From NCBI GenBank assembly GCA_965219345.1, contig OZ244732.1, forward strand, positions 1,312,001 to 1,376,000: a stretch of DNA of 64,000 bases. The letters are read 5' to 3'. A program made the translations under genes and the position numbers. The notes below the pieces were generated by a model that ran no database searches, had not been told where the DNA came from, and saw nothing but the letters and a program-made list of their open reading frames with translations. This stretch comes from Nitrosopumilus sp. Its GTDB lineage: Archaea > Thermoproteota > Nitrososphaeria > Nitrososphaerales > Nitrosopumilaceae. Below are positions 7,884-55,171 of this stretch, piece by piece; the first letter of the stretch is position 1, and every line of letters begins with the position of its first letter.

Positions 7884-9075
7884 TGTGGGATCCTGAAAGT
7901 AGTATACCCCCTATCTGACATCGTATTCCTCTCCCGTTTGTTCGTCAATAACTGTTTGTCCTGGGGATGGCATCTTTCTGGTGAATGCCCGCGCCGGTGT
8001 CTCTAGGTTGTCCAGATCAAGTGACATGTGTGGCCGGTCGTGGTTGAACCATTCCACAAACCGCTCCACGGGATCCGTCTTTGGTTTCGTGTTGAACGGT
8101 CCGCCCACACGGTCCGTCTCGGATCCTGCTGAACGCACCGTTCTGTAGGCCGACTCCTCCTCGAAGAGGTGCAGTTTGCGCTGGAGTTCACCGTGAACCC
8201 TCTCGAGCTTGCCGTTTGTCTGCGGGTGTCTTACACGCGCCAGGATCTGCCTGATGCCCAGCGACACCAGCTCCCGCTCAAATTCGGAGGCGCCTTTCTT
8301 CTTGTACTGCCCCTCGTTGGCGTAGAACTGGCTGCCGCGGTCAGTCAGAATGGACGCGGGTTTGCCGTGCGCCTCCATTGCTGCCCTGAGAACCTCGATT
8401 GCGTGCCTGGAGGTGGCCTGATCAAAGACGCCGTATCCGACAATAAACCTGGAGGCGTCATCCAGATAGGCGATAAACCACCTTCCGTCATCCAGCTGCT
8501 TGTAGTCTGTGTGCCACATCGAGTTGGAGTAGGTGCGCTCAAAGCGGATCCACTTGCGCCTCTTGCTCTTCTTGGGCTGCCTTGCCGACAGGTTGTTGTC
8601 CCTCATTATGCCGTGTATGGCATTGTGAGGGATATGTATTCCCTCTTCCTCCTCGATCAGTCGCTCCGTGCGGACGGCCCCCTGGCGGTGCCTGCAGTGT
8701 GCAGAGAGGACCGCAGAGTGTTCCCTGCGACCCGGAAGACCATTCTCGGGCCTGCCCATGCTAGCCGGGTAGACTATCCTGTCAGGTTCCACACCCTTGT
8801 ACCTGGCCCACAGTTTCTTTACCCAGATCTCGGAGATGCCCATGGTATCTGCAATCTGTCTGTTGGTCGTTTTGCCGGCCTTCTTCTGCAGGATTATCCA
8901 CTTTACCTTTGACTCGTCAAGTTTTCTCATGACCCTGATGCGGCGCCTTCCGATATGTCTCCACCTCTGTGTGCGCTTTAGGAACCCACGCACCATCATC
9001 TCAATTCTGCGTCTTGCTTCAGTCAGTATGCGTCCCTCCTATTTTGAGGGGGTATACTACTTTCTGGACTATACA
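7884..9075 (-). mobile_element. IS481-family insertion sequence, copy 1
   Basis: TGT...ACA ends with ~27-bp imperfect TIR (...GAAAGTAGTATACCCC); GC-rich; rve-type transposase. Confidence 0.93.
7911..8999 (-). CDS. IS481-family DDE transposase
   Basis: WHTDYK, LDDASR, LTDRGSQF, PQTNGKLER, RPHMSL motifs. Confidence 0.93.
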   Translation of the reverse strand: MMVRGFLKRTQRWRHIGRRRIRVMRKLDESKVKWIILQKKAGKTTNRQIADTMGISEIWVKKLWARYKGVEPDRIVYPASMGRPENGLPGRREHSAVLSAHCRHRQGAVRTERLIEEEEGIHIPHNAIHGIMRDNNLSARQPKKSKRRKWIRFERTYSNSMWHTDYKQLDDGRWFIAYLDDASRFIVGYGVFDQATSRHAIEVLRAAMEAHGKPASILTDRGSQFYANEGQYKKKGASEFERELVSLGIRQILARVRHPQTNGKLERVHGELQRKLHLFEEESAYRTVRSAGSETDRVGGPFNTKPKTDPVERFVEWFNHDRPHMSLDLDNLETPARAFTRKMPSPGQTVIDEQTGEEYDVR

Positions 9076-9224
9076 ACAGAGCCTTCTTCTGGTAATCTTT
9101 ATTAATTATCAATTAGATTTCTTTTTGATTTCAATGAGCAGAAAATTAACTGGATCACTTGGCAAAGATTTGCAAGTTGTTATTCTACTGTAAAGACTGC
9201 TCAAAATTTTAACACATTAAAATT

Positions 9225-10937
9225 ATGGAGATTGAATTGATGAATAAAATGGAAACTATGACAGGTGCAAAGGCTTTGATGACGGCTATGGAAAAAGAAG
9301 GCGTCAAACAAGTGTTTGGCATACCCGGAGGTGCAAATCTTCCGATGTATGACGAATTTGCTAGATGTGATATTAGACACATTTTGGCAAGACATGAACA
9401 ATCAGCAGCTCATATGGCTGATGGTTTTGGTAGAGTTAGCAGAAAACCAGGTGTTTGCTTTGCAACATCAGGACCCGGCGCTACTAACATATTGACTGGG
9501 CTTGCAACAGCACAAGCTGATTCTGCACCAATGATTGCAGTAACTGGCCAAGTACCAGTAGCTATGATTGGACGTGATGCATTTCAAGAAAGTGATATAA
9601 TTGGGATGTCGAATCCTGTTGTAAAATATGCATTTCAACCAAGAACAGCTGGTGAAGTTCCAGAAGCTGTAAGAAAAGGATTCTACATTGCAGAAACTGG
9701 ACGACCTGGACCTGTACTTATTGATATTCCAAAAGATGTTCAACAAAATGAAGCAGAGATGACATTTCCAGATGAATTTAAAATACAAGGTTATCATCCT
9801 TGGACTGATCCTGATGTTGTTGCATGTGAAAAAGCAATTGATATGTTACTTAATTCAGAAAAACCAATCATTTTAGCTGGTGGAGGAACTATTATCTCAT
9901 CAGCTTTTGCTGAATTACAATCTATTGCTGAAACTCTTATGCTTCCAGTAGTAACTACTTTCAAAGGAAAAGGTGCATTTCCTGAAAATCATCCTTTGTC
10001 ATTAGGTCCAATTGGAATGCATGGACATGCAGAGGCAAATAAAATGATGACAGAAGCTGATTGTGTATTAGCAATAGGCACTAGATTCTCTGATAGATCA
10101 GTTGGAACCTTTGAGGCATTTGAAAAGAGGCTCAAAATCATTCACATGGATGTGGACCCTGCAGAGATTGGCAAAAACCAAAATGCACAGATTGCAGTAG
10201 TTGGAGATGTCAAAGTATCTCTTAGAATAATGATAAAATTACTTTTGCAAAGAGCGATTAAAAAAACTGAAGAGACTACTTGGATAAAGCATGTAAAAGA
10301 AACTAAATCTTACTGGCAAGAAAACTTGAAAATTCATCCAGGTGAAATGGGTGCTGCAAAAATTTTACGTAAACTTCGAGAGTTGTTACCAAAAGAATCT
10401 ATTGTAACTACTGAAGTAGGACAACACCAAATGTGGGCATCATTATTCTATGATGTAATTCAACCTGGTACTTTCTTTAGTTCTACTGGACTTGGTACTA
10501 TGGGTTGGGGATTTCCAGCATCAATTGGTGCCAAAGTTGCAAAACCTGATGTTCCTGTAGTGGATATTGCAGGTGATGGAAGCTTTGCAATGACTGAAAA
10601 TTCCCTTGCAACTTGTATTCAAGAAGACATTCCAGTAATCGTATTTATCTTAAATAATTTTACTTTGGGAATGGTAGCTCAATGGCAAAGAACTTTCTAT
10701 GACAGAAGAATGATTGGAGTGGACCAAGCACGTATTCCTGATTATGTTAAATTAGCAGAATCATACGGAGCTCAAGGAATTAGAGCACAGTCAATGGATG
10801 AGCTTGACAAAGCAATCAAAGCTGCATTAAGTAGTGATGTTGCAACTGTAATTGACATTCCAATTGATCCTGAAGAAGACGTATTACCATTTGTAGCTCC
10901 TGGAACTTCGCTTGAGGATATGATCTTACCATCATAG
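9225..10937 (+). CDS. ilvB: Acetolactate synthase large subunit
   Basis: RHEQSAAHMADG, TSGPGATN, GDGSF...NN ThDP motif. Confidence 0.96.
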   Translation: MEIELMNKMETMTGAKALMTAMEKEGVKQVFGIPGGANLPMYDEFARCDIRHILARHEQSAAHMADGFGRVSRKPGVCFATSGPGATNILTGLATAQADSAPMIAVTGQVPVAMIGRDAFQESDIIGMSNPVVKYAFQPRTAGEVPEAVRKGFYIAETGRPGPVLIDIPKDVQQNEAEMTFPDEFKIQGYHPWTDPDVVACEKAIDMLLNSEKPIILAGGGTIISSAFAELQSIAETLMLPVVTTFKGKGAFPENHPLSLGPIGMHGHAEANKMMTEADCVLAIGTRFSDRSVGTFEAFEKRLKIIHMDVDPAEIGKNQNAQIAVVGDVKVSLRIMIKLLLQRAIKKTEETTWIKHVKETKSYWQENLKIHPGEMGAAKILRKLRELLPKESIVTTEVGQHQMWASLFYDVIQPGTFFSSTGLGTMGWGFPASIGAKVAKPDVPVVDIAGDGSFAMTENSLATCIQEDIPVIVFILNNFTLGMVAQWQRTFYDRRMIGVDQARIPDYVKLAESYGAQGIRAQSMDELDKAIKAALSSDVATVIDIPIDPEEDVLPFVAPGTSLEDMILPS

Positions 10938-22323: not shown

Positions 22324-23177
22324 GTGGATCGAAGCCTTCTACTCTTTCAAAACTCTTTGAAAAGTGATGTATCTGTTTCAAACTATACACGACATTTAGA
22401 TCTATTCATGAATTTTGTAAGCAATGAAATGGACCTAAAATTAGACTATGATAGGTTATCTACAATCCCAGTTCCTCAACTTCAGATTCTTGTAGAAGAC
22501 TATGTTATGACACTAAAAGAAATTAAATCCTAATTCAATTCCAGCATACTATTATCCAATTCAATCTTTTTTTGAATCAAACGATGTTGATCTAAGGTGG
22601 AGAAAAATTAGAAAATTATTTCCTCAAAAAGTCAGTGTCTGGTGATAAACCATACACTAATGATGATATCAAAAAGATGCTAGATGTTACTCCACAACTA
22701 CGAAATAAGGCAATCATTCATTTTCTTGCATCATCTGGATGTAGATTAGGTGCATTGCCTGATCTACAACTAAGACATTTGTCTGAAATGTCTGATGGTT
22801 GTAAATCTGTTTTAGTTTATGAAGACAGCATTGAAGAATATTATACTTTCTTTACTCCTGAATCCTCAAAGTCTTTAGATGAATATTTTGAACAGAGAAA
22901 AATTGATGGTGAAGTTTTATCTGCAACAAGTCCCGTGTTTAGAAACAAGTATCTTATTGGTAATTCACCAGTAAAAGAAATGAGTGAAAAAAGTATTCAA
23001 AACGTTGTTGCTCGTGCAGTTTTAAAATCTGGAATTAGAGGTGAAGTTAAACGAAATGGAAGATATGAAAAACAAACTGATCATGCATTTAGAAAATGAT
23101 TCAATACAATATTGAAACTCAACAATGATGTAAATTCTAATGTAGTTGAAAAAATGCTTGGGCATAAAAAAGGATTA
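22324..23177 (+). pseudogene. Tyrosine recombinase/integrase, frameshifted, with internal stop, truncated by IS630
   Basis: LASSGCRLG (catalytic R), HAFRK*, EKMLGH; split into fragments at ~22533 and ~22635. Confidence 0.85.
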
Positions 23178-23254
23178 TACTGACGAGCAAAAGTTCATGA
23201 GATCAAACATGTTAGACGGCAACACATTTTGATCACGTCCCACTACGCATTACA

Positions 23255-24333
23255 ATGCCCGCAGTAAAATCCGAAGACCTGAAGAAGGCGTACAAGAAGG
23301 AAAGAGATCCCAGTTGATGCTGTTGGGTTTGTTGTTGTTGTTGTTGATGACCTGAAGAAGGCGTACAAGAAGGAAAGAGATCCCAGAGTCAAGATCAGGA
23401 TGGCCGCAGTAAACATGGTGTGCATGAACAATAAGAGCATCCAGCATGCGGCAGACTCACTCATGCAGTGTCCCAACTGGGTCTCCTTCTGGGTGGAACG
23501 CTTCCGGGAGGGCGGCATCGACGCCCCCGGGATCTTCCCAAGAGCGGCAGGCCACCGAAGGTCAGGCTCGAAGACATTGAAGAGACAATATCCGGGGCAG
23601 GCAGCATCATTACTCCCCCGCAGCTGAGGGAACGTGTCCGCAAGATGCACGGCATAACATACCACATTACAAGCGCCAGGAGGATAATGCACAGGCTGGG
23701 CATGTCTGCCAAGACGGCAAGACGGGTCCACATAAACAGGCAGGGACAGACGAGATCAGAAGGTGGCAGCGCAACGCAAAGAGGCGCATATCGCGCCTGG
23801 AATCGAGGGGTTTTGCCGTCGTAGTCTTTGACGAGTCCATATTCATAGACGACCCGGCATCGGGGACAAAGTACTGGTCGCCAAAAGGCCAGCCCATAGT
23901 CACCACATACAAGGGCAGACACGGCAGGGTCGTGGCGTACGGTTCCATCGCGACTGACGGCAGGCAGTTCATCAGGGCGTACAAAAAATTTGACAAGGAG
24001 ACGGTACTGCGGTACCTAAAGGAGCTTGCGGGACATTTCGGAAAGGTTGCCATAATAATGGACAACGCGCCGCAGCACAAGGCAAAGACGGCAGGCGAGT
24101 TCCCAAAGGGCAACAAAAAAGTCAAGGCAGTATGGCTTCCAACCGCAACACCGGAGCTCAGCGTCATGGAGGAGTACTGGCACCAGTCAAAGCGCGACGT
24201 GCTGGTGTCAGAATATTATGGAACAATAGGGCAGATGCGCCGCGCAATGTCAGAGCATTTCAGGACGGCGCGGCCGTGGCTTGACGCAATGAAGTTCATC
24301 TGCAGAAAGTCATTTGATCTCAAGAACTTTTGA
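23255..24333 (+). pseudogene. IS630 transposase, frameshifted and interrupted by a repeat-spacer-repeat insertion
   Basis: HTH (PKSGRPPK), FDES, IMDNAPQH, LPTATPELSVMEEYW in different frames. Confidence 0.88.
23276..23386 (+). repeat. Repeat-spacer-repeat scar 1: 38-bp target duplication around a 35-bp insert
   Basis: GACCTGAAGAAGGCGTACAAGAAGGAAAGAGATCCCAG at 23276-23313 and 23349-23386. Confidence 0.95.
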
Positions 24334-24962
24334 TCGACAGTGTAATGCCCTTTGCCCTGATGCAAAATGTGCCATCAATTGATTTTCTTGAGAGTCATTA
24401 TACATTAAATTATATAATTTATGAAATGTTAAATCTAAATTATTTAGTTTTGTTAAGTATGCCCCAATGTTTCCTTCTTTAGGAATTTGAATTTCTCCAT
24501 TAATCACTTCTCTAGGATGTTTATGATAAACAAAAAGTCCTGTTTTAAGTGATAGATAATTTGACAGTCTAGATGCAGTCTTTAATGCTTCAATAATTTT
24601 TTATCACTTCCATCTGTTTTAATTGTAAATCCAGTGATTATTTTGGTGTTTTCAAGATCAAATTGTAATTCAATATCTGTTGAATTTGTAGATATCCCAG
24701 GCAACCAGACAGGTTCAATAAATTCAAAATATAATCCAACAACAACTATTACTTCTTCTTTAAAATTTACATGTTCACTTACCACAACTATTTTTACATC
24801 ATGATCACATGAAAACTATTTTACCTTTTTTCCATATTCATCAAAAAAAGTTTTTTGTAGAGTACCTTCTTTACATTCAGCACATTTTTCTTCGTTTGAT
24901 ATTGTTTTATTTTGCTGTTATTTTATTAAAAACATGATCATGCACTTTAAGAAAATTTTATT

Positions 24963-26745: not shown

Positions 26746-27065
26746 GATTTTGGTAATATGGAAAATGATGATTTGATAAACAAAGCATTTGAACACATTA
26801 AAGGAGAATTAATGATTCCTCAAATTATTAATTCATTAAAAACTAATTTTGACCTGGCGAAGTTCACATGATTCCATTCATGAATTTATTTTATTCATGG
26901 GCATGATGATCTCAAATAATTCTAATTATTCATTTAAACAAAACATGGTTTTTTTCCTTTACTGTGAAGAAATATTCTTTCTAGCTCATAGATCCTCTTT
27001 AGATGCTTTATCTGTTCATTATAATGCAGTATTTATTAATTTACGAGCAATACTTGAGCTTTTAA

Positions 27066-27824
27066 TTCAGGGAACTTTGATAATAATTGGACTCTCGAGT
27101 TTGATTGGAGTGCCGATAGGCGTGATGTCGGGAATATATCTATCTGAATATGGTGATAACAAACTTGCTAGAACAATTCGATTCTTCAATGATGTATTCA
27201 TGGAATTCCCATCAATTGTTCTTGGAATTTTTGCATTTTTGGTGATTGTATTGCTTCTTGGACACTTTTCAGTATGGGCAGGTGCTTTTGCATTATCTTT
27301 AATCATGTTTCCAATTGTTGCTAGAACTACCGAAGAACCCCTCAAGATGGTGCCAGCCGGCCTGTACCGGACGCCGCTCGTTGTCTATGACAGCTAGAAC
27401 TACCGAAGAATCCCTCAAGATGGTGCCAGTAACTCATCGTGAAGCTGGAACTGCTTTAGGTCTTAAAAAATGGGTAATTACTTTTAGAATTGTAATTTCT
27501 GCTGCAAAAAATGGAATGATCACTGGAATTTTATTATCTGTATCTAGAATCGGTGGTGAAACTGCCCCATTAATTATGACTATCTTGGGCAGTAGTCAAT
27601 TCTTTAGCAGTATGGATGTACCAATGGATGCTTTTCCATTGAGAATTTGGAGATTATCTTTATTGCCATATGATAGTGCACAGCTTCCGGGTTGGGGTTC
27701 AGCACTAGTTCTAATCTTCATCATTCTAGGAATTAATCTTGCTGTTAGATACTTTTTTGCAAACAAGAAAAGGAAAAATGGAATTTTTGGGCAATTAATC
27801 AAAGGAGTTAGAGCTAAAAATTGA
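27066..27824 (+). pseudogene. pstA: Phosphate ABC transporter permease PstA, 5'-truncated and interrupted
   Basis: GIYLSEY, FPSIVLGIF, ARTTEESL..VP...REAG.ALG, RIGGETAPL; N-terminus fused to unrelated DNA; 73-bp insertion. Confidence 0.92.
27320..27429 (+). repeat. Repeat-spacer-repeat scar 2: 37-bp target duplication (1 mismatch) around a 36-bp insert
   Basis: GCTAGAACTACCGAAGAA(C/T)CCCTCAAGATGGTGCCAG at 27320-27356 and 27393-27429. Confidence 0.95.
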
Positions 27825-28719
27825 CGGCGCTAAGTACATCTGCTAACATGGAAACACAGGCAAAATCGGTTCCACCTAAAATTGATTCTGAAAAATACAA
27901 AATGATTGCAGAAAATGTCACTATAAGTTATGATGGAATTGAAGCTGTCAAAAATGTCACAATGAAATTCAAAGAAAGATCAGTCACTGCTTTGATAGCC
28001 GATTCTGTGGGCATCTGCGAGGTTGGATTTTAATGAAATTCAAAGAAAGATCAGTCACTGCTTTGATAGGGCCATCTGGTTGTGGGAAAACAACATTTCT
28101 TCGATGTCTTAATCGAATGCACGATATGACAAAAAATGCAAGAGTTGATGGAAAAGTTATGATTGATGATATTGATCTTTATGATAAATCAGTTGATCCT
28201 ATCTATCATCGCAGAAAAGTAGGCATGGTTTTCCAAAAACCAAACCCGTTTCCAACCATGTCAATTTATGATAATGTTATTGCAGGTTTGAAACTTAATG
28301 GAGTCCGAGATAAAAAAATTCTAGATGAGATTGTCGAAGACTCATTGAAGATGGCATATCTTTGGGATGAAGTAAAACATGATTTGAAAAAATCCGCAAT
28401 TGAATTATCTGGTGGTCAGCAACAACGTTTATGCATTGCAAGAGCCCTTGCTATCCAACCTGAAGTTTTGCTAATGGATGAACCTGCATCTGCACTTGAT
28501 CCAATCGCAACTCAAAAAATTGAAGAAACAATTGCCGAATTAAAAAAAGAGTATACCATAATTATTGTAACTCATAATATGCAACAGGCAGTACGTGTTT
28601 CAGATTATACTGGATTCATGTATCTGGGTGACTTGTTGAATTTAGAGAAACAAAGAAGCTATTCACTGATCCAAAAAATGAATTAACTGCAAAATATGTT
28701 CAGGGGGCAATTTGGATAA
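27821..28719 (+). pseudogene. pstB: Phosphate ABC transporter ATPase PstB, interrupted
   Basis: [45 protein letters not shown]; 71-bp insertion plus a frameshift near 28632. Confidence 0.93.
27961..28069 (+). repeat. Repeat-spacer-repeat scar 3: 38-bp target duplication around a 33-bp insert
   Basis: AATGAAATTCAAAGAAAGATCAGTCACTGCTTTGATAG at 27961-27998 and 28032-28069. Confidence 0.95.
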
Positions 28720-29375
28720 TGACAAGACTGATTGCTCCTTCCCTTGAAAAATTATCTCAAATAATGTCTGAGATGGGAGATGCTGCAATAGAATGTATTT
28801 CATTAGCTGTTGATTCCTACCTTGAAGGGAAAAATACTACTAATCAAGTTCATGAACTATCTGATTCAATTCGCAACAAGTACTTTGAAGTCGAAGACTT
28901 GATTTTTGATATGCTTTTGAAATATCAACCAGTAGCTGATGATTTTAGAATGATTCGCTCTTCTACTGAAATATCATATGCATTTTCAAGATTTGGAAGA
29001 TATGCCTATGACATTACACAAGTACGAGACTTGTTTGGTGATATTTCTGAATGTACAAATGCATCACTGTTTGAAATAACAAAAAAAGTGAAACACATGA
29101 TCAAAGAAGCTATTCTCTCTTTTGCAGAACTAGATGTTAGAAAAGCTGTAAAAATTCAAGAAGATGAAGCATTCATTGATAAAATATACAAAGAAAGACT
29201 GACAAAACTAATAGAGTCTAATAATACTAAATATGCATTAGCTGAAGCATTGCTCTTGAGGTATCTTGAAAGAATTGGAGACCATGCAGTTTTCATGAGT
29301 GATGCCATTAACTATATCGTTACAGGAAAACACAAACCAAGCGAAAAAAGAATAACATCTCATACAAAACCCTGA
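28719..29375 (+). CDS. phoU: Phosphate uptake regulator PhoU
   Basis: YQPVADDFR, RYLERIGDHA; follows pstB. Confidence 0.9.
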   Translation: MTRLIAPSLEKLSQIMSEMGDAAIECISLAVDSYLEGKNTTNQVHELSDSIRNKYFEVEDLIFDMLLKYQPVADDFRMIRSSTEISYAFSRFGRYAYDITQVRDLFGDISECTNASLFEITKKVKHMIKEAILSFAELDVRKAVKIQEDEAFIDKIYKERLTKLIESNNTKYALAEALLLRYLERIGDHAVFMSDAINYIVTGKHKPSEKRITSHTKP

Positions 29376-35918: not shown

Positions 35919-36962
35919 TGTAGTATATGAAAACTCGGTCCGCTAGTCATCTGCATCCTTCTCCATCCATTGCGGGTCGCCTTCCCTGATCGCGTCCGTG
36001 GCCTTTTTGTCCGAGAACGCCCTCAGCGGGGTCTGGTAGTTGTCAATGTCAAGGGAGAAGTGCAGCCTCTCCTCGTTGTAGTATTCCATGTACGCAGACA
36101 GGCTCTCATAGTGGAATATCTCGTCCTCTATGCTGCGGTGGAACCTCTCAAGCTTCCCGTTGGTCTGGGGATGGTACGGCCTGGAGTTTATCAGCTCGAT
36201 GCCGCAGTCGAGCAGCTCGGCCTCAAAGGCAGTAGCCTTCCACGCTTTTGCGGGCGGCGCCTTCCTGCGGCCGCCGCGGCCGACAAAGCATGAACCGTTG
36301 TCTGAGAGGATCGTGGCAGGCGTGCCGAACCTGCCTATTGCGTCCCTGAGCACCAGTACTGCGTTCTCGGATGTGGCCTGCGTGAAGACCTGCGAGGCCA
36401 CGACGCACCTTGAGGCGTCATCAAGATACGTGACCAGCTGGAGGCCCCGAAACCGCGGGTCCTTCATCTCGTGCCAGTCGACATGCCACATGGCATTGGA
36501 ATACCTGCGCTCATAGCGCACCCACTTACGCTTCCTTGATTTTGCAGCAGACGGCACGACTGAGCCGCTCTTCTTCAATATACGGTATACTGCATGGTAG
36601 CTTATATCATGATTCTTCCTGAGATCCCTTGCGGTACGCACCACCCCCACCGGACGCCTCCGGTGCGCCCATGTCACGAGCCGCATCCGGGATGCGGTGA
36701 TGCAGAGGCGCGGCCTACCCATCCTTGCGCGGGTGGTGCCGGTCCTCTGAAACCTCGCCCACAGCCTCCGCACGTGCCTGGCAGTGATGCCGAGGTCCCT
36801 TGCCACTTGGGATGAGGACGAACCCTTCCTGCGCTGCCTTACCAGATACTGCCTGGACTCTTCTGTCAGTCTCTTTGTCATGGACTTTCGTGATCGGTAC
36901 AGGCTAAAATAATCGGCTACTGTCCTCTTGATCCTGTGCGGACCGACTTTGCGTACAATAGA
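35919..36962 (-). mobile_element. IS481-family insertion sequence, second type
   Basis: TGTAGTATATGAAAACTCGGTCCGC left end; imperfect inverted copy GCGGACCGACTTTGCGTACAATAGA at the right. Confidence 0.85.
35943..36881 (-). CDS. IS481-family transposase
   Basis: WHVDW, LDDASR, LSDNGSCF, PQTNGKLERF; probable start MTKRLTEESR. Confidence 0.88.
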   Translation of the reverse strand: MTKRLTEESRQYLVRQRRKGSSSSQVARDLGITARHVRRLWARFQRTGTTRARMGRPRLCITASRMRLVTWAHRRRPVGVVRTARDLRKNHDISYHAVYRILKKSGSVVPSAAKSRKRKWVRYERRYSNAMWHVDWHEMKDPRFRGLQLVTYLDDASRCVVASQVFTQATSENAVLVLRDAIGRFGTPATILSDNGSCFVGRGGRRKAPPAKAWKATAFEAELLDCGIELINSRPYHPQTNGKLERFHRSIEDEIFHYESLSAYMEYYNEERLHFSLDIDNYQTPLRAFSDKKATDAIREGDPQWMEKDADD

Positions 36963-37110
36963 ACGGGGTACGGCATCTTTGATGATGCCACGACCCAAAA
37001 CGCCCTCAAAGCGCTAGACGAGGCAGTTGAGAGCCACGGCAGGCCTACATCAGTCATGACCGACCACGGAAGCCAGTTCTATGCAAACAAGAAGGAGGAG
37101 AAGGGGAGTT
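36963..37110 (+). pseudogene. Fragment of a third IS481-type transposase
   Basis: TGYGIFDDATTQNALKAL..HGRPTSVMTDHGSQFYAN, homologous to the 7911-8999 core. Confidence 0.8.
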
Positions 37111-37165
37111 TTTACCTGATTCCCAATAATGAATATTTTTTATATGGAAAAATAAGTGAAATTTG

Positions 37166-37509
37166 ATGGTAAAAATACTCATTGCAGGTGATTCTGATGC
37201 AATTCGTTTAGTTTTAAAAGATATTTTAACAATTGAGAATCCTGAAGTAGGTGCTGAAGCAGTTGATCTTTATCAACAATATAATCCTCAAATTCCTCTT
37301 CTTGATTTGGCAATGCCAAAAAAGATGGTTTCGCAGTTGTAAAAGAAGTAATGAAATATGATTCCAATGCAAAAATAATTTTAATCACTGCAAATGATGA
37401 TCAAAAAGTCATCGCTCAATGTTTAAAATATGGTGCAAAATCTCACATTGCCAAACCCCTTGATTTTAATTCTGTCTTAAAATCCATTTCTGCACTTTTG
37501 GAAAATTAA
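37166..37509 (+). pseudogene. CheY-like response regulator, frameshifted in an A-run at ~37320
   Basis: MVKILIAGDS..., LLDLAMP|KKDG, LITA, GA..HIAKP. Confidence 0.7.
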
Positions 37510-37546
37510 TTTAGGGCATTAATTTATATCAAAATGGAAGGATAAT

Positions 37547-39367
37547 TTGTCAAAAATTGTTGCTGATACTAGTATCATAATTAATGGTCAACTTATTGCT
37601 CAGATAGAAGCAGGTTCAATTAGAAATTCTGAAATTATAATACCTCAAGCAGTTTTTGATGAATTACAATCTCAAGCGTCTAACAAAAAGGAACAGGGTT
37701 TTACTGGATTAGAAAAAATTCAAAAACTTAAAGAATTATCTGGCAGTTATGGGCTGAATATAGTTTTGAAGGGATCGCATCCCTCTACCGATGATATTAA
37801 ACTTGCAGATCGTGGTAGAATTGATGCCCTTATCACTGATTTGGCTAAACAAAACGATGCTGTTCTTTATACATCAGATAATGTTCAACATCTAGTTGCA
37901 CAAGCTGAAGATGTTGAAACAGTTTTTCTTAAACATGTAATTAAAGATGAAACATTAGAATTTCTGAAATTTTTTGATGCTGAGACAATGAGTGTTCATC
38001 TTAAAGAAAACCAATATCCTTTAGCAAAAAAAGGAAAACCTGGCACTTTTTCATTAACTACACTTAGTGATGATATTCTTTCAAGAGATTATTTGGAGTC
38101 AATTTCGTCACAAATCTTAGATGTGGCACATGCATCTGATTCAAGTAACATTGAGATCTCAAAGACTGGCGCATCTGTAATTCAACATGATGATTATCGT
38201 ATAGCAATCACCTGTCCTCCTTTTTCTGAATCTTTTGAAATAACAATTGTTCATCCAATCGTAAAATTATCTCTTGAAGATTATCAAATTTCTGATGAGT
38301 TAATGAAACGTTTCTCTGATAGAGCTGAAGGAATTGTGATTTCTGGTGCTCCGGGTTCTGGGAAAAGCACTCTTGCATCCGGACTTGCAAATTTTTATCA
38401 TAATAAGGGAAAAATTGTTAAAACATTTGAATCGCCCCGCGATTTGCAAGTTGATCCTGGAATTACTCAATATAGTAAATTAGATGGAAGTTTTGATAAC
38501 AGCGCTGACATTTTGTTACTTGTTCGTCCTGATTATACTATTTTTGACGAAATAAGAAGACGAGAAGATTTTAGAACATTCGCTGATTTGCGATTAACTG
38601 GTGTAGGAATGGTCGGTGTGGTTCATGCGAATTCCCCAATTGATGCAATTCAGCGTTTTATTGGAAAGATTGAACTTGGTATAATTCCAAGTGTATTGGA
38701 TACTGTAGTCTTTGTAAAAGATGGGAGAATTGAAAAAGTCTATGACTTGAAATTAAAAGTAAAGGTACCTTCTGGAATGACCGAATCTGATCTAGCAAGG
38801 CCTGTCATTGAAATTAGAAATTTTGCAGATAATGTTCTAGAACATGAAATCTACACATTCGGAGAAGAAAATGTTATTGTTCCCATTGCAAAAAGGGTTC
38901 AAAAAGTTGGAATTGAAAAACTTGCCGAAGATAAAATAAGAGAAACTTTCAAAAGATATGATCCTCACGCAGAAGTTGAAATTTTATCTGATAATAGAGT
39001 AAAAGTATTTGTAGATGAACAATGTATCCCGTCAATAATAGGAAGAGGAGGCTCAAACATCAATGAAATTGAAAAATTCCTCAAAGTCCATGTTGATGTT
39101 GTTCAAAAAGACTCTGATTATTCATCTAGAATGACGAATGATCTACCATTTACTTATTCAGAATCAAAAACTGCTCTGCTTCTAACCGTTAACAAAGAAT
39201 ATACTTCAATGCATGTAAATATCTCTGTTAATGACGAATATGTCACATCAGTAAGAATTGGTAAGAAAGGGCAGATAAAAATTCCAAAACGTTCTGATAT
39301 TGCAAGAAATCTTATGAGTCTTGCATCCTCGCAAAACGATATTCAAATATTCCTCAAAGATTTTTAA
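37547..39367 (+). CDS. PIN-domain ATPase with KH domains (PINA-type)
   Basis: VADTS PIN domain, GAPGSGKST, RPDYTIFDEIR, IIGRGGSNI KH. Confidence 0.9.
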   Translation: MSKIVADTSIIINGQLIAQIEAGSIRNSEIIIPQAVFDELQSQASNKKEQGFTGLEKIQKLKELSGSYGLNIVLKGSHPSTDDIKLADRGRIDALITDLAKQNDAVLYTSDNVQHLVAQAEDVETVFLKHVIKDETLEFLKFFDAETMSVHLKENQYPLAKKGKPGTFSLTTLSDDILSRDYLESISSQILDVAHASDSSNIEISKTGASVIQHDDYRIAITCPPFSESFEITIVHPIVKLSLEDYQISDELMKRFSDRAEGIVISGAPGSGKSTLASGLANFYHNKGKIVKTFESPRDLQVDPGITQYSKLDGSFDNSADILLLVRPDYTIFDEIRRREDFRTFADLRLTGVGMVGVVHANSPIDAIQRFIGKIELGIIPSVLDTVVFVKDGRIEKVYDLKLKVKVPSGMTESDLARPVIEIRNFADNVLEHEIYTFGEENVIVPIAKRVQKVGIEKLAEDKIRETFKRYDPHAEVEILSDNRVKVFVDEQCIPSIIGRGGSNINEIEKFLKVHVDVVQKDSDYSSRMTNDLPFTYSESKTALLLTVNKEYTSMHVNISVNDEYVTSVRIGKKGQIKIPKRSDIARNLMSLASSQNDIQIFLKDF

Positions 39368-46446: not shown

Positions 46447-48189
46447 TCACTTTTTTTGTCCTTTGTATAATGTAATAACTTCTTCATTTGTAGATGCATC
46501 TTCAACTGCTTTTTCAACCCTGATTTTCCCAGTAAATTTTGGGAATCTCAAAGCAAGACCTGCATCTTTTCTAATCTTATCTTTTGCTGCTTTATGTATT
46601 GGACTTAAAGTAATCTCCGAAGCTACTATCTCTATTACTAGTTCTGGTTCAAACCACACATCAGCTTCCATTTCACTATCTATGCGTGGATTTTTCTTAA
46701 TTGTAACTTTAGGATTTAAAATTTGATACAATTGATCTAAATCTTCATCTGAAAATCCTGTTCCTACTTTACAAATACTTGTGAATATATCTTCATCTTC
46801 ATCATATGTTGCAAGCAGTAGTGTTCCATAGTTTCCTGTTCTTCTACCCTTTCCAAAAAATCCCCCTATTACCACAAGATCTAAACTATCTCCTAATTCA
46901 TTCTGATATTCCCGCTTTAGCTTCAACCAATGACTTCCCCTTGAACCTGCTTTGTATGGCTTATCAAGCATCTTCAACATCAATCCCTCACTACCTGCGT
47001 TAATGCTATTTTCTAAAAAGTCCTTAATTTCGTTATCATTTTTGACTAATGTCATTGGGACATATTTTGCAAAATCATCTTCTTTTACAATTTTCTCTAG
47101 TTTCTCTCTTCTATCTTTGTAGTCTAATTCTAAACAGATCTTTCCATTGCAGTACAAAATATCAAAAAAATTCACTGTGATTGGATATTGTGTAACTGCT
47201 TTTTCTATCTTGTATTTTCTTCTTCTATGCATCAATTCCTGAAATGGTAGAAAATCTCCCGTATTTTCATTAATTGCCACTGCCTCTGCTTCTAAAATTA
47301 CATTGTCTGCTTGAATTGCTTTGGGAATTTTTTCTATAATGTCCGGATAATAACTTGAAATGTTTTCTAAACTTCTAGAAAACAATACTACTTTTTCACC
47401 TTCAATGTGGAGTTGTACTCTTTCTCCATCTAACTTGTATTCTGCCGCAAAATTGCTTCCCATTTTTTCAATTGCATCCTTTTCACTCCTTATTCTGTCT
47501 GCAAGCATTGGCCTGATTGGATTAAATAAAATAACATCAAATTTCTCAACTCCTTCTATGCCTTTAGTTGCTATAGTTTCAGCAACTTTTCCTAAATCAC
47601 TTGAGACATTGTATGCATGTTGCAAAATTTTTCTATTATCCTTATTTCCCGAAAATGCTACTGCTAATGCATCCATCACTGTGTTTTCTGCAATTCCTAA
47701 TCTTAATGATCCCAACAAAATCTTCAAAATGTAACTTGCCTCTAATGGATTTGCGTCATTTAGTAAACTCGAAATATATTTTATCTTCATATCTTGTGAA
47801 CCCGAGCCTTCTAACTTGGCAATTTTGAATAATGTATCGTAGACTCTTTCTACTGTAATGTCTTCTGCAAGAAACGTTGTCTGTGTTTTTTGTTCTAGTA
47901 TTATAGATGCGGCATGTCCTAGATCTCCTTGTTTCCTATATTCATCTTCAATTTTCTTAATTGGAATTCCTGATGACTTTGAAATTGCTCTTAACGCAAG
48001 TTTTTCAGCAACACCTAATTCAATTCCTTCAAAATCTGGTCTTAGTTTTCCCTGTAACAGATACACAATTTTAGAAATAATATTCTCCGAGGTTTTTTCA
48101 AATAATTCTACTAGATATTGTGTTAACCCTGATCTTTTCCTGGTTGATTCCATTTTGTTAAAAGAATCAGCTAAAATAGAGAACTCCAT
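46447..48189 (-). CDS. lig: ATP-dependent DNA ligase
   Basis: EYKLDGER, EGLMLK, WLKLKREY, LRFP. Confidence 0.96.
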   Translation of the reverse strand: MEFSILADSFNKMESTRKRSGLTQYLVELFEKTSENIISKIVYLLQGKLRPDFEGIELGVAEKLALRAISKSSGIPIKKIEDEYRKQGDLGHAASIILEQKTQTTFLAEDITVERVYDTLFKIAKLEGSGSQDMKIKYISSLLNDANPLEASYILKILLGSLRLGIAENTVMDALAVAFSGNKDNRKILQHAYNVSSDLGKVAETIATKGIEGVEKFDVILFNPIRPMLADRIRSEKDAIEKMGSNFAAEYKLDGERVQLHIEGEKVVLFSRSLENISSYYPDIIEKIPKAIQADNVILEAEAVAINENTGDFLPFQELMHRRRKYKIEKAVTQYPITVNFFDILYCNGKICLELDYKDRREKLEKIVKEDDFAKYVPMTLVKNDNEIKDFLENSINAGSEGLMLKMLDKPYKAGSRGSHWLKLKREYQNELGDSLDLVVIGGFFGKGRRTGNYGTLLLATYDEDEDIFTSICKVGTGFSDEDLDQLYQILNPKVTIKKNPRIDSEMEADVWFEPELVIEIVASEITLSPIHKAAKDKIRKDAGLALRFPKFTGKIRVEKAVEDASTNEEVITLYKGQKK

Positions 48190-48226
48190 CCCAATCCTTT
48201 ACTTAATCCTGAATAAAAGTTTGAAA

Positions 48227-48640
48227 CTAGATGTATTTGAAAATTATTGGTTTGTCTGAATCAGTATGTTCAGAAACTAGTGCAAAGTTGTATAATGGAT
48301 ATTCTTTTTTGTATTGTTTCATAAAACTCCAAGCAACATCATGTGTTTTGAATTCAGTTCTAATGCCGTCAATTTGGCTCTTTTTCCCAAATACATCGAA
48401 TGTTATCACTGAATACTGTTTTGGACGATTATGGGGCCTTGCCTTAACAAGCCAAAACAGTGCAAAAGCGAAGACCGATCCTAAAATTATGTACTCGCCA
48501 GCCATTTTGAAGAATGTCAAAAAGATTCCTGGTATGGTCTGTCCAAATAAAACAGCCATAAAATTTGAAAATGTAATTACTGCAAATACTGTAACAAGGT
48601 AAGTTTTGTAATCAAAAATTTTTTGAAAACAACTTTTCAT
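48227..48640 (-). CDS. Hypothetical membrane protein
   Basis: Two TM helices followed by a soluble domain. Confidence 0.65.
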   Translation of the reverse strand: MKSCFQKIFDYKTYLVTVFAVITFSNFMAVLFGQTIPGIFLTFFKMAGEYIILGSVFAFALFWLVKARPHNRPKQYSVITFDVFGKKSQIDGIRTEFKTHDVAWSFMKQYKKEYPLYNFALVSEHTDSDKPIIFKYI

Positions 48641-48769
48641 CTATTTTGATAGAGTCTTTTTTCATTTAACTATTTCCTAAAACTTGATGACATGTATAGT
48701 CCAGAAAGTAGTATACCCCCCTCAAAATAGGAGGGACGCATACTGACTGAAGCAAGACGCAGAATTGAG

Positions 48770-49811
48770 ATGATGGTACGTGGGTTCCTAAAGCGCACAC
48801 AGAGGTGGAGACATATCGGAAGGCACCGCATCAGGGTCATAAGAAAACTTGACGAGTCAAAGGTAAAGTGGATAATCCTGCAGAAGAAGGCCGGCAAAAC
48901 GACCAACAGACAGATTGCAGATACCATGGGCATCTCCGAGATCTGGGTAAAGAAACTGTGGGCCAGGTACAAGGGTGTGGAACCTGACAGGATAGTCTAC
49001 CCGGCTAGCATGGGCAGGCCCGAGAATGGTCTTCCGGGTCGCAGGGAACACTCTGCGGTCCTCTCTGCACACTGCAGGCACCGCCAGGGGGCCGTCCGCA
49101 CGGAGCGACTGATCGAGGAGGAAGAGGGAATACATATCCCTCACAATGCCGTACACGGCATAATGAGGGACAACAACCTGTCGGCAAGGCAGCCCAAGAA
49201 GAGCAAGAGGCGCAAGTGGATCCGCTTTGAGCGCACCTACTCCAACTCGATGTGGCACACAGACTACAAGCAGCTGGATGACGGAAGGTGGTTTATCGCC
49301 TATCTGGATGACGCCTCCAGGTTTATTGTCGGATACGGCGTCTTTGATCAGGCCACCTCCAGGCACGCAATCGAGGTTCTCAGGGCAGCAATGGAGGCGC
49401 ACGGCAAACCCGCGTCCATTCTGACTGACCGCGGCAGCCAGTTCTACGCCAACGAGGGGCAGTACAAGAAGAAAGGCGCCTCCGAATTTGAGCGGGAGCT
49501 GGTGTCGCTGGGCATCAGGCAGATCCTGGCGCGTGTAAGACACCCGCAGACAAACGGCAAGCTCGAGAGGGTTCACGGTGAACTCCAGCGCAAACTGCAC
49601 CTCTTCGAGGAGGAGTCGGCCTACAGAACGGTGCGTTCAGCAGGATCCGAGACGGACCGTGTGGGCGGACCGTTCAACACGAAACCAAAGACGGATCCCG
49701 TGGAGCGGTTTGTGGAATGGTTCAACCACGACCGGCCACACATGTCACTTGATCTGGACAACCTAGAGACACCGGCGCGGGCATTCACCAGAAAGATGCC
49801 ATCCCCAGGAC
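48770..49811 (+). pseudogene. IS481 transposase, C-terminus displaced to 55066-55119
   Basis: Near-identical to 7911-8999 up to KMPSPG; the tail QTVIDEQTGEEYDVR* is found at 55072-55119. Confidence 0.9.
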
Positions 49812-51052
49812 GGTGCTGTCCAAATCCTCCCGGAAAAATCCGCGAAAAGCTTATGGATCATGAATCATCCCGTAATGCTTTTTGATCACGGGACATGGCA
49901 CACATCTAATGTCTTTGAAAAGAAAGAAGCGTGAGAGGGCAGGCGCGCAGTACGACGCCCATGTCAGGCAGTATCGCAGGCATGCCAGGAACGCCAATGC
50001 CAGAAAGTATCGCAACTATAGGGCATACGAGGGCAGGCGAAGGGAGGAGGGCAGAACCATAAGGGCGAGGATCAAGAAACTCAAGAGATTGATCCCCCAC
50101 CGTATGGAAGGATGCCTCCGATGACGCGGCCGCCTTGCTGTGCGTGCTGGATATGGCGTTCCGGAACCACTCGTACAGGGTTCATGTCACGTACATGGAA
50201 CTGCACCCGGGTTCGGTAAACGCCTACGGCCTAAAAAGCATTCCATCAAAATCGACCCTGCACAACATGGCGGTGAAGCTGTCTGCCCAGATGACATGCA
50301 TCATGGAACTGTTGATGGCACAGGCAGGCAATGATGCCTGCGGCACGCTTGCAGGCGACTCGTCGGGGTTCTCCATATGAGGTACGAGGACGGAGGATGC
50401 CAAGAGGGGAGTCGTGTCCAGACGCAGGTTCGACAAGCTGCACGTGCTTGTGGCGCTCCGCATGGCATGATATCTGCCTGCGAGGTGACACATGGAAGGG
50501 CGCACGACTCGCCGGTATTCCGCACGATGTTTGCAAGGATCTCACATGGTTCGGGGCACGTGCTGCTGGACGCGGCCTACCTTGCAAGGAAGAACTGCCG
50601 GGCCATAGCAGACAGCGGGCGCCGGTCCGTGATATGCCCAAGGAGAATTCTGTTCCCCGGGGGTTTGGTCCGATGGGAAGGATGCTTAAGTGGCACCGCG
50701 ACGATCCTAACGGATTCAAAAAGGCGTATCACCGGCGCAGCCTGGTGGAGGGCGTCTTCTCTGTGATCAAGGAGAGGTTCGGTGCCGTGGCACGCGCAAG
50801 GACTGCCCCGATGAGGCGGGTGCATCTGAGCCTCATGTGCATATGCTACAACCTGGTCGCATGATGCCATCACTGCTGGAATGCTGTGTCTGGCCTAGCG
50901 CAAGCTGTATTCTGGCACTCCGTTTTGGTGCGGAATTGTGAAACCATGCATGTTAGCCCGTCTAATTCGGCCGTACGGGTTGATTTGTCCTCATATCCTT
51001 ACACCAAAAGTCATGCAATCAGTGTCCAGAATTGGCAAGTTTGGACAGCACC
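49812..51052 (+). mobile_element. IS5-like (DDE_Tnp_1) insertion sequence with a frameshifted transposase
   Basis: 13-bp TIR GGTGCTGTCCAAA / TTTGGACAGCACC; GDSSGF, KLHV, HDSP, LLDAAY, YHRRSLVEGVFSVIK spread over several frames. Confidence 0.85.
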
Positions 51053-51099
51053 ACCTTGATCGATATAGATATTTACCCCCTCCCCCCTGTAGATAGTCA

Positions 51100-52482
51100 G
51101 TGACACTAAAGAAGAGAGACAGCACTGTTGCGGCAGTCTTGATGGTTGTAGCGATAACAGCGGTAGTAACAGCAAGCGGCTACCACGCAGCGTATGGCCA
51201 GTCAGGCACCGATGCCGATGTGGTGGTTGTTCCAACGCTGAAATATAGTGTCGAGTACGGTACGATTGCCCATGACTTGGAACTGACAAGAGTACTGTTA
51301 AGCACACCATCCACGTTACCAGACCAATCTAGACTTGTTCATAATGCTATTGGTTATAATGTCACTGGAAGTCCCTGGATTGCCGTGTTTCCTGACTCTT
51401 TGAATACCATACAGGGCGGCAGTCTTGTGGCATCCGGAGAACCTATGAGACCGTACGATTTTAATAATGGCACTAGACTTGCCATAACCTGTGATACGAA
51501 CGACTTTGGCCACGACCCCACAATGCTTGCAGAGTTTGACTACATCCCCGGTGCCACGTATACCGGTACCGATACGTTTGACATTGTCATAAAAGAGTTC
51601 ACCTATACCGGTGATGCCAGATCTGCGGCCTGTCTTGTTACCGGAGAAACTAGAACCATACCCGTAGATATTACGGTAGGTGAAAAGCCATCCGTAACGT
51701 TCAGGGATGACTTTACAAAGTTCTCCAACAGTTCCGGCGTAGTCGTGCTTTATAAAATTGAAGACCTGTATGGTAAGCAACCTCCGAATTTCTCCTTTCC
51801 ATTTCCCTCCTTTGAGCCCTTTGTAAGTAATGCAAGAGTCGGACTTGACCTTCCTGAGACGACAGATAGCGGACTGCCCATAACATTAAACGCGGATCAG
51901 GATGGGAATCTGGATAATACATCATTTGTATTATATGGCACCGAGTACAACATCAGGGGCGTGTTTAGTAACGACTTCTTTTTATACAATATGACTGTCG
52001 GCCTGCCCTACGGTACCGTTGTAAATGGCGCCATCGTAGAGTCCCAAAACGAGATTGCAAGAAAGATGATTAACGTCACGCTGGATGCCGCTGACGCCGA
52101 TGTTCCAGTATGCTCGGCCAGCGTATCCGGTGATCTGGACTTTGGCAGCCTGGCATATGGCGATACTTCGGATGCAAAGTTATTAGCAGTTCAGAATACC
52201 GGCACCGGCCCTGTTCAAGTGTTCATATCTGCAACTGACTGGCTGAACAGTGAGGGTGAATCAATCATGAATGTGGAGCAGACAAGGTACTCTTTTAATG
52301 ATTCGAACGGTGCATACGGAAATAGAACCCCAATGTCTGAATCTGAAGTTTCACTTGTAGATTATATTCCACCTCCCAATTATTATTCCACCTATCTGCA
52401 AGTTCAAATTGGTGAGATCTCTGATACCTTTACAGGTCAGCTGACACAGACCATAACTACGACTGCAACCTGCAGTAGCTAG
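51100..52482 (+). CDS. Secreted/surface beta-rich protein (cargo)
   Basis: Signal peptide; Thr/Ser/Asp-rich; C-terminal LDFGSL...VQNTG...TQTITTTATC module; higher GC than the host. Confidence 0.75.
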   Translation: MTLKKRDSTVAAVLMVVAITAVVTASGYHAAYGQSGTDADVVVVPTLKYSVEYGTIAHDLELTRVLLSTPSTLPDQSRLVHNAIGYNVTGSPWIAVFPDSLNTIQGGSLVASGEPMRPYDFNNGTRLAITCDTNDFGHDPTMLAEFDYIPGATYTGTDTFDIVIKEFTYTGDARSAACLVTGETRTIPVDITVGEKPSVTFRDDFTKFSNSSGVVVLYKIEDLYGKQPPNFSFPFPSFEPFVSNARVGLDLPETTDSGLPITLNADQDGNLDNTSFVLYGTEYNIRGVFSNDFFLYNMTVGLPYGTVVNGAIVESQNEIARKMINVTLDAADADVPVCSASVSGDLDFGSLAYGDTSDAKLLAVQNTGTGPVQVFISATDWLNSEGESIMNVEQTRYSFNDSNGAYGNRTPMSESEVSLVDYIPPPNYYSTYLQVQIGEISDTFTGQLTQTITTTATCSS

Positions 52483-53623: not shown

Positions 53624-54006
53624 ATGAATATAAAATCAAGTTTAGTTTTGATGGCATCAATTATGACAGTATTTGGCATAATGATGATCCCAGCAGATAT
53701 TTCTGCAGAATCTAATCAAAACAGCATTACTGTAACTCCAATTAATGAGGAGATAAGTTTGCAAGAGACGGTCACTGCAATGAGCATTCCTGAAGACAAC
53801 AAACTTCCTTGGGGAGCAGTAGTTGGTGCGGCATCAGATTATGTTGAAAGATATCCGGTAATTATCCAAATGTACAAGGGTGAAGATCCAGTTCACGTTT
53901 CACAAGTTGATGTAAAAGGAGATGGCTCCTATGAATACAAATTCAGAGTACGAAGTCTTGATTCAAACACTGGAGAATTTGTAAATGTCTTTGAAGGGGA
54001 TTATAC
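53624..54006 (+). pseudogene. Secreted protein truncated by an IS fragment
   Basis: Signal peptide; Ig-like VDVKGDGSYEYKF..EGDY, then abrupt switch to GC-rich DNA. Confidence 0.6.
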
Positions 54007-54492
54007 TAGACTTTATGCGTAATCGCCACTTGCAAATTTTTCGAAACATTTAGATCCGCCTTGATCGCCGCCACATGCAATAGTCCCCCGAACAGATCAT
54101 ACAAAGGCTGCAAAGGGAGCTCAAAGAGAAGAACAGAACGATCAGACAGAAGGACAGGGAAGTCAGCAAGCACATCAAGGCAGTCAGCTCTCTCCGCGAG
54201 CGGCTGGAACTTGAGGATGGTCTGTGGCAACGGGTGCAGACAGGCTTGGCATGGACGCCTCGCTGCTTCACATGAGGGAGGTCATATGCGACATACTGCA
54301 AGACGGGGGCAAGATTTCTGCCATGACCGGGCTTGACGCCGGCCAGTTCGACCATATCCACGGGAAGTTTGTAAAAGAGTCAAGGAAGCACGGCAACGCG
54401 CCGCTCTTCTCCGAAGACTGCACACCGGATCCCGGAAACCGGTGCCTGCTTGACCGCAGGTCCGTCCTGCTGCTTGCGCTCTTCCGCAAGAG
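54007..54492 (+). mobile_element. 5' fragment of an IS5-family (ISL2-like, HTH_Tnp_4) element
   Basis: GC-rich; AMTGLDAGQFD.I...RCLLDRRSVLLLALFR resembles the HTH_Tnp_4 region; truncated. Confidence 0.55.
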
Positions 54493-54650
54493 GTCAAAGG
54501 AGAACCGTTCTTTAGGTGTCCTCCGCGATAGTCAAGCCATATATCACATATCTGACATCGTGCCTGTCCTGCTTCGTACCGGCCACCGACTACGGGCTTG
54601 GTTACTCTGAACTTTTTGCATATTTCCTTGCAGGTGCTCTTTAGTTTCAC
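54493..54650 (-). pseudogene. Truncated thaumarchaeal Cys-rich Zn-finger protein
   Basis: TCKEICKKF...GRYEAGQARCQICDIW. Confidence 0.5.
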
Positions 54651-55171
54651 AACCTTGATAATCCTTCTGCCTATATGAAAATTATTTGCGCCTTACAAAT
54701 ACAGGAGTTTGAATACTTCGTCTATATCAGAAGTTGTAAATGTGCTTTGCCACATCGTTGAGCTTTACGCATCATTGGTAAAAATGCTGATTTTTGTGCA
54801 GGAAACTGAAAACAACCACGCATGTGGATCATGCGTCTACAGAGCACATTTTCAACTTTTGATATGACAATAGTTAGCTGTTCTGCCATGATCTGTCTAG
54901 TGCATTATTGCGCATGTGCCTGAAATTCTAGTCTGTTGCACAACTACGCCTAAAACCTGACTGATACCAACAATTTTTACCATTGGACAAACATTGGTGC
55001 GCCAAAAGACATTTGGATCAGGTAACCTGCTAACCATACACAGTGGCATCCACAGACAACGCACCCCAGGACAAACAGTTATTGACGAACAAACGGGAGA
55101 GGAATACGATGTCAGATAGGGGGTATACTACTTTCAGGATCCCACATAAAACTTGGTGACAAAAGAAATTG

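Follow-up and report, generated by a model that had tools for sequence, protein, structure and literature searches.

The pstB gene of the Nitrosopumilus genome studied here (G000) is broken by a 71-bp addition, in which a spacer-sized insert sits between two identical copies of its target sequence. We attribute this structure, denoted scar 3, to off-target full-site spacer integration by the resident type I-G Cas4/1-Cas2 complex, with a probability of roughly 0.9. The initial annotation had suspected a CRISPR-type integration scar, and this core idea is borne out by a resident array whose repeat measures 36 nt, an intact Cas4/Cas1-Cas2 module and a genome-wide excess of similar units; two of the details offered in its support carry no weight. 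Positions are those of the window, i.e., the whole 64-kb stretch of DNA analysed, unless they are given on contigs C1 or C2.

Anatomy of the insertion in pstB

Two copies of the 38-nt sequence AATGAAATTCAAAGAAAGATCAGTCACTGCTTTGATAG are located on the forward strand at 27961-27998 and 28032-28069, 100% identical and 71 nt apart from start to start. Between them lies the 33-nt insert CCGATTCTGTGGGCATCTGCGAGGTTGGATTTT (27999-28031, forward strand), which contains 17 G+C (52%). A perfect 38-mer that recurs at a distance of 71 bp in a 64-kb window is not attributable to chance. The net addition to pstB is 71 bp, placed directly upstream of the Walker A motif. The perfect 38-bp duplication around a 33-bp insert with 17 G+C had been described in the initial annotation and was confirmed, with one refinement. 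Up to 2 nt at the left border can be assigned either way, because the A's at this position may belong to the insert, so that the duplication measures 36-38 nt and the insert 33-35 nt; the right border is clear-cut. If the duplication measures 36 nt, as the resident CRISPR repeat does, the one or two A's on the left would belong to the insert, which would then be 34-35 nt long; the upstream target copy, present once in relatives, has 36 nt when its first two A's are assigned to the insert.

The gene is left as two frames on the forward strand. The N-terminal fragment of 70 aa (27821-28033) matches positions 2-36 of the TIGR00972 (NCBIfam) profile and consists of pstB sequence followed by insert sequence; its TAA stop (28031-28033) overlaps the next ATG in the string TAATG. 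This ATG (28033) lies in the downstream target copy and starts the C-terminal fragment of 217 aa (28033-28686), which contains the Walker A motif and the rest of the ATPase and scores 336.6 bits against TIGR00972 over profile positions 22-226 of 248, slightly below the cut-off of 343.2 bits. The reading frame is interrupted 5 codons upstream of the Walker A glycine. In-silico excision of the 71 bp yields a single open frame running into GPSGCGKT (Walker A), as had been predicted from the window, and an alignment showed the empty site, with one target copy and no insert, in all seven congeneric pstB orthologues compared (L004-L010; 81-86% identical at the DNA level across the main aligned segment of pstB). 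Scar 3 is confirmed as a genuine insertion and not an ancestral feature.

The insertion was also followed in Logan contigs. Those of run X1 read across the insert (record 6, 27969-28061), and those of run X2, which belongs to a second study, break at 27990 and 28040 and have extra depth over the repeat of scar 3. Since the X2 breaks fall at the places expected for a duplicated 38-mer and X1 bridges the insert, scar 3 is not an artefact of one assembly. No joint lacking the 71 bp was found in the contigs of X1 or X2, which cannot reveal rare variants; the contigs of X6 and X7 do not reach this site. Furthermore, no inverted repeats were found around scar 3 (27500-28600).

The pst locus and the other scars of the window

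The relative G017 has an intact pstC-pstA-pstB-phoU order. In G000, the Pst locus spans 26840-29375; its PstB frame stops some 10 aa short of that of G017, and phoU looks intact. There is only one pstB in G000, the next-best ABC ATPase scoring 138 bits, and neither pstC nor pstS (TIGR02136) was found in the genome, which is 99.5% complete and consists of two contigs.

The window contains two further scars of the same build as scar 3, at 23276-23386 and 27320-27429, both annotated on the forward strand. The latter, scar 2, divides pstA into frames of 182 aa and 169 aa; its 36-nt insert (27357-27392, 64% G+C) is flanked by 37-nt target copies that differ by 1 mismatch. Its empty site was found in 7/7 relatives, and its downstream copy keeps the relatives' base at the mismatch position. 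Single contigs of X1 (record 3) and X2 (record 14) span scar 2 with zero differing letters. As the copies of scar 2 differ by a mismatch and those of scar 3 do not differ at all, scar 2 may have arisen first. With pstC and pstS missing and pstA split by scar 2, the Pst locus is a remnant, and the lesion made by scar 3 would be tolerated because the transporter is already defunct. On the simplest view, scar 3 would thus be neutral or nearly so, as a lesion of an operon that is already dead.

Scar 1 (23276-23386) has a 38-nt duplication and a 35-nt insert and lies in a degenerate IS630-family transposase element, within the part encoding the N-terminal region. Contigs of X2 (record 10) and X7 (record 24) skip the stretch 23283-23355, which indicates that there are other copies of the IS630-family element without scar 1. 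In X2, this element (23176-24344) has 5-14 times the depth of the flanking chromosome and shows variant letters. The initial annotation had noted that the inserts of scars 2 and 3 both start with CCG. This is true, but CCG is not a signature, opening 2 of the 33 scar inserts of the genome and 2 of the 163 spacers of the array.

The composition of the window is uneven, with 43-52% G+C at 8001-10000, 36001-38000, 48001-52000 and 54001-56000 in a background of 34% G+C.

Genome-wide census of scars

The genome surveyed comprises contigs C1 (1,871,224 bp) and C2 (41,585 bp) and has 36% G+C. Isolated direct repeats with exactly two copies of at least 20 nt and a spacing of at most 400 were collected, giving 65 pairs. 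When these were tabulated by length, 33 of the 65 combined a repeat of 30-39 nt with an insert of 30-40 nt, and the adjacent cells of the table held 0-3 pairs each; 25 pairs fell at repeats of 35-39 nt. A genome-wide excess of such scars, which had been proposed as a check on the initial annotation, was therefore found, about half of the isolated pairs (33/65) sharing the same dimensions.

Among the 33 scars, the duplication length has its mode at 36 nt (11 scars), followed by 37 nt (8) and 38 nt (4). Duplications shorter than 36 nt (30-35 nt) occur in 10/33, pointing to sloppy spacing or later mutation. The periods lie between 70 and 75 in 27 of the 33, with a mode of 73. The two copies are identical in 21 scars, differ by one mismatch in nine and differ by two in three. 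No third repeat copy is present within 400 bp of any of the 33. Two sets of scars are twins in duplicated elements (37490/243305 and 1483340/1826944), so some scars predate those duplications.

The scars show no bias toward periods that are multiples of three (remainders of 0, 1 and 2 in 9, 11 and 13 scars, respectively). Once excised, 15 of the 33 lie inside frames of at least 150 aa, and several of the scars fall 0-6 codons from a stop. They are also clustered, with eight pairs at most 5 kb apart where 2.8 would be expected (P = 0.01), which could come from the tolerance of dispensable regions or from integration bias.

One unit with a 35-nt repeat and a 102-nt insert, at C1:451555, was not counted as a scar because it is present twice in a duplicated region. 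Its two occurrences (C1:451555-451726 and C1:464948-465119) are 98% identical, and the insert is too long for a spacer. Elsewhere on C1, long and G+C-rich arrays of 153-bp (and 171-bp) tandem repeats occupy 74000-92000 and 187000-200000, and a ACACACGC microsatellite is located at 73117. Contig C2 contains no CRISPR repeat, no scar and no match to an array spacer or insert.

The resident type I-G system

The genome contains a single CRISPR array (C1:1641728-1653821), in which the 36-nt repeat ATTTCCATAACGAAAAAGTTATGGCCCCATTGAAGC occurs 164 times and separates 163 spacers of 35-53 nt, mostly 36-39 nt. Outside this array, no copy of the repeat with at most 4 mismatches was found in the genome. 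The array periods fall within 71-76 in 150/163 units and peak at 73, like those of the scars; the period of scar 3, 71, is the shortest common array period (8/163 units).

Directly upstream of the array is a gene for a Cas4g/Cas1g fusion of 561 aa without stops, which scores 754.4 bits (cut-off 560), together with a Cas2 gene (36.9 bits; cut-off 24.5), both beside the array. Genes for Csb2, Csb1/Cas7g, Cas8g/Csx17 and Cas3g lie downstream of the array on the other strand. As judged from its gene content, this is one complete, apparently intact type I-G locus. Apart from this fusion, the genome yielded no full Cas1 and just a broken Cas1-like piece (an 83-aa frame with a stop). The closest relatives of the Cas4g/Cas1g protein outside Nitrosopumilaceae-labelled records are in bacterial metagenome-assembled genomes labelled Dehalococcoidia and Caldilineaceae, at 50-57% identity, which suggests that the I-G adaptation module may be common to both domains.

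The resident repeat folds into a hairpin with a 7-bp stem (-8.3 kcal/mol, z = -3.41). In the arrays of G009, G078 and G053, the stem CCATAAC/GTTATGG is replaced by CCGTAAC/GTTACGG, and in G087 the loop is altered as well (L012-L016); these compensatory stem changes in the arrays of relatives support the hairpin. The ending C-A-A is more frequent among the array spacers than their composition would give, with C at position -3 in 55/163, A at -2 in 60/163 and A at -1 in 77/163, perhaps as a trace of processing at the non-PAM end.

Sources of the inserts

The 33 scar inserts (32-40 nt) are all different from one another and contain neither element ends nor genes. Seven of them are perfect or 34/35 copies of a single-copy chromosomal sequence that is present elsewhere in its native context. 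Full-length matches to the chromosome or to contig C2 were found for none of the 163 array spacers (0/163), as would be expected if self-spacers are harmful only where they are processed into crRNA. The mean G+C content of the inserts (0.423) is close to that of the array spacers (0.420), the genome having 0.36, and between inserts and array spacers there are chance matches of 9-14 nt only. These features of the sequences suggest that the scar inserts behave like captured prespacers. The seven self-protospacers revealed no consistent PAM on either side, TTG preceding the protospacer on the 5' side in 2/7.

For the insert of scar 3, no second copy was found in the genome, including contig C2 (blastn-short), and no match with at most 3 mismatches in 150 congeneric genomes. 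The viral_contigs and metagenome_contigs collections gave no exact match, a search that a diverged source would escape. The insert of scar 2 likewise has no self-match.

Target choice

The target of scar 3 ends in TTGATAG, and its likeness to the TTGAAAG end of archaeal CRISPR repeats had been put forward in the initial annotation. The resident repeat ends in ATTGAAGC, so this likeness carries no weight. Comparison of the whole target with the resident repeat, which had been recommended as a check, also brought out no similarity beyond chance, with 14/36 matches in the best register, within the range of random sites. Across all 33 scars, the targets have a mean best score of 12.97 against the resident repeat, compared with 12.11 (sd 0.35) for means of 33 sites under the null; this likeness of about 2.4 sd is a weak signal. 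Unlike the resident repeat, the target of scar 3 forms no significant hairpin (-4.5 kcal/mol, z = -0.35).

At the borders, G/C is significantly enriched. The 5' border base is G at 22/62 borders, where 18% would be expected (P = 8e-4), and G or C is found at 40/62. No leader-like flank motif emerged from a de novo motif search in which orientation and offset were hidden variables. Two pairs of paralogous targets inflate the likelihood reached in this search (218, compared with 129.6 ± 8.4 under the null), and at none of the positions did the motif exceed 0.7 bit; from this search we therefore retain only the preference at the borders, for which the counts above are a separate test.

Two target sequences in multi-copy elements were each struck twice by different inserts (C1:404166 and C1:1448839; C1:1824847 and C1:1483340/1826944). 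In one of these pairs the left border is identical and one of the duplications is 5 nt shorter. The doubly struck targets argue for a sequence preference and look like integration hot spots.

Scars in congeneric genomes

A Cas4g/Cas1g protein above the cut-off was found in 7 of the 81 congeneric genomes searched. Eight genomes, five of them carriers of the I-G module and three without Cas1, were scanned for scars over their first 400 kb. The carriers yielded 26 scars in 2.0 Mb (eight each in G000 and G009, five in G051, three in G087 and two in G078), and the Cas1-less congeners yielded two in 1.2 Mb (none in G059, one with a period of 81 in G012 and one in G002). Scar occurrence is tied to the I-G module in these data, which are supportive; the genomes are few and related and do not form an independent test. 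The unit of G002, at 106319, has a 30-nt repeat, a 42-nt insert and a period of 72, and lies in a congener that has no Cas1 match and 53% G+C. This unit may have survived from a system since lost, or may have arisen by chance.

Origin of the scars

Scar 3 has the features of an off-target integration product. The lengths of its duplication and insert fit, Cas1-Cas2 are encoded in the genome, relatives have the empty site, and the scars are associated with the module. In the mechanism that we propose, the integrase loaded with a 33-35-nt prespacer would attack opposite strands of pstB about 36 bp apart, in place of the ends of the first CRISPR repeat. Repair of the two resulting single-stranded gaps would duplicate the 36-38-bp target, as it does the CRISPR repeat in normal adaptation. 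The product would be a target-insert-target unit with a net gain of 71 bp, which would then have become fixed. The duplicated target lacks the hairpin of the CRISPR repeat and should therefore yield no crRNA, and this would explain why self-derived inserts survive in scars and not in the array.

Several other structures were considered. Scar 3 is not a bona fide CRISPR array, since it has no copy of the resident repeat and no significant hairpin and sits within a coding sequence. A transposable element or MITE does not fit inserts that are all different, a scar 3 insert that is unique in the genome and the absence of inverted repeats at 27500-28600. An archaeal intron of the BHB type seems unlikely as well, because direct repeats do not form the helices it needs and the folded repeat copies show no significant structure.

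It is improbable, in our estimate, that the scars are working elements, i.e., minimal neo-CRISPR arrays that grow and give crRNAs or reversible gene switches that restore pstB. Off-target integration has been proposed as a seed of new arrays (Nivala et al. 2018, as cited in 10.1101/148544 and PMC6698737), yet the lack of a third repeat copy at every one of the 33 scars means that none has grown, and the target of scar 3 is far from the stability of the repeat hairpin (z of -0.35 vs -3.4). Precise excision of the 71 bp would be mechanistically possible through recombination or slippage between the perfect 38-nt copies, and the TAATG overlap between the stop of the 70-aa frame and the start of the 217-aa frame means that both halves of pstB could be translated even as they stand. 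However, the contigs of X1 and X2, in which rare variants would be invisible, contain no empty-site form, and a restored pstB would not restore transport without pstS and pstC. In addition, the 12 of 33 scars with one or two mismatches between their copies are what neutral decay predicts.

Each of the remaining explanations is less probable still. Cas-independent mutation, by which replication slippage or error-prone break repair would leave a tandem duplication with filler, is very improbable: break repair can in general place direct repeats around filler, but such processes give no reason why duplication and filler should each keep to about 36 nt, with a single sharp peak in the length table, and they do not account for seven fillers that copy distant single-copy loci, or for units found often in I-G carriers and hardly ever in Cas1-less congeners. 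We give equally little credence to another integrase, be it a viral or plasmid enzyme or a casposase, a Cas1 homologue known from Nitrosopumilus casposons. Casposon target duplications are about 14-15 bp long, not 36. The genus does contain Cas1-like fragments and casposase-sized Cas1 homologues, and a family 1 casposase has been documented in Ca. N. koreensis (PMC8464041). Against this, the 32-40-nt inserts are all different and lack element ends and genes, and beyond Cas4g/Cas1g the only Cas1-like sequence of G000 is the broken 83-aa fragment with its stop. Moreover, G012, which encodes a casposase-sized Cas1 homologue (a 344-aa frame whose family match is C-terminal, covering positions 364-506 only) and has no I-G module, has zero units of period 70-76 in 400 kb. 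An assembly or sequencing artefact is the least probable of all; short repeats can confuse assemblers, but contigs from the runs of two studies agree with scar 3, scar 2 is spanned in both X1 and X2, and units of the same type occur in four other congeneric assemblies.

Implications

Extending off-target integration by the I-G complex from scar 3 to the genus is a larger claim, which we consider somewhat better supported than not. According to it, the I-G adaptation complex would be a frequent natural insertional mutagen in the Nitrosopumilus lineages that carry it, with about 5-20 fixed ectopic integrations per Mb. These would break genes (pstA, pstB and the IS630 transposase), recur at preferred targets and keep a record of uptake that interference has not selected, about one-fifth of it self-derived and never retained in the array.

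If this is true, scars would allow the fidelity of CRISPR adaptation and its discrimination between self and non-self to be measured in wild genomes. CRISPR adaptation would carry a measurable mutational cost, in the form of split genes. The inserts would sample the captures of the integrase free of selection (7/33 self-derived, compared with 0/163 in the array), and the targets would provide natural data on type I-G target choice, with a 36-bp ruler, G/C borders and repeatedly struck sites. For annotation, such units would account for puzzling frameshifts, and they could pass for tiny CRISPR arrays.

Comparison with known systems

Non-canonical integration was described by Nivala, Shipman and Church in 2018, who obtained neo-CRISPR units in Escherichia coli with a type I-E system and over-produced Cas1-Cas2 (as cited in 10.1101/148544, PMC7054753 and PMC6698737). 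The scars resemble those units in having a spacer-sized insert and a repeat-length duplication of a non-CRISPR target outside the array. They differ in being natural, archaeal and attributed to type I-G, with about 33 fixed in a 1.9-Mb genome, and in that they recur in congeners and interrupt genes. According to the citing texts, Nivala et al. had only 'circumstantial evidence' in two other species, and the natural frequency is called unclear (10.1101/148544). The literature that we searched, mostly outside subscription journals, contained no account of natural off-target scars across a genome, either for Nitrosopumilus or for type I-G systems.

A second parallel comes from Pyrococcus furiosus, whose Cas1-Cas2 was reported to use non-CRISPR sites in vitro with G/C borders one repeat length apart (PMC6698737). 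The borders of the scars are similar, with G at 22/62 and G or C at 40/62. The P. furiosus sites were on a plasmid in vitro, with a 30-bp repeat, and matched several internal positions of the repeat as described in that source, whereas the scars have a spacing of 36 bp, are genomic and fixed, and show at most a weak internal likeness to the repeat.

Closer in enzyme type is the type I-G Cas4/1-Cas2 complex characterized in vitro, for which the fidelity on the spacer side was 60-70% correct, below that on the leader side, and smears suggested non-specific integration (PMC10504553). As in that system, a Cas4/Cas1 fusion and Cas2 are encoded beside the array of G000. The proteins used there were from M. 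barkeri and G. sulfurreducens and acted on CRISPR plasmids; the passages of that paper on integration mention no chromosomal off-target scars, and 'off-target' occurs 0 times in its main text. Ectopic spacer acquisition is also known from Streptococcus thermophilus, where it takes place inside arrays (PMC7999890, PMC5338259). Those spacers share with the scars a non-canonical position, but they were placed at genuine repeats in the array, whereas the targets in G000 are unrelated chromosomal sequences. The mechanism is thus already known from the laboratory, and what would be of special interest here is the abundance of the scars, the breakage of genes and the recurrence across a lineage.
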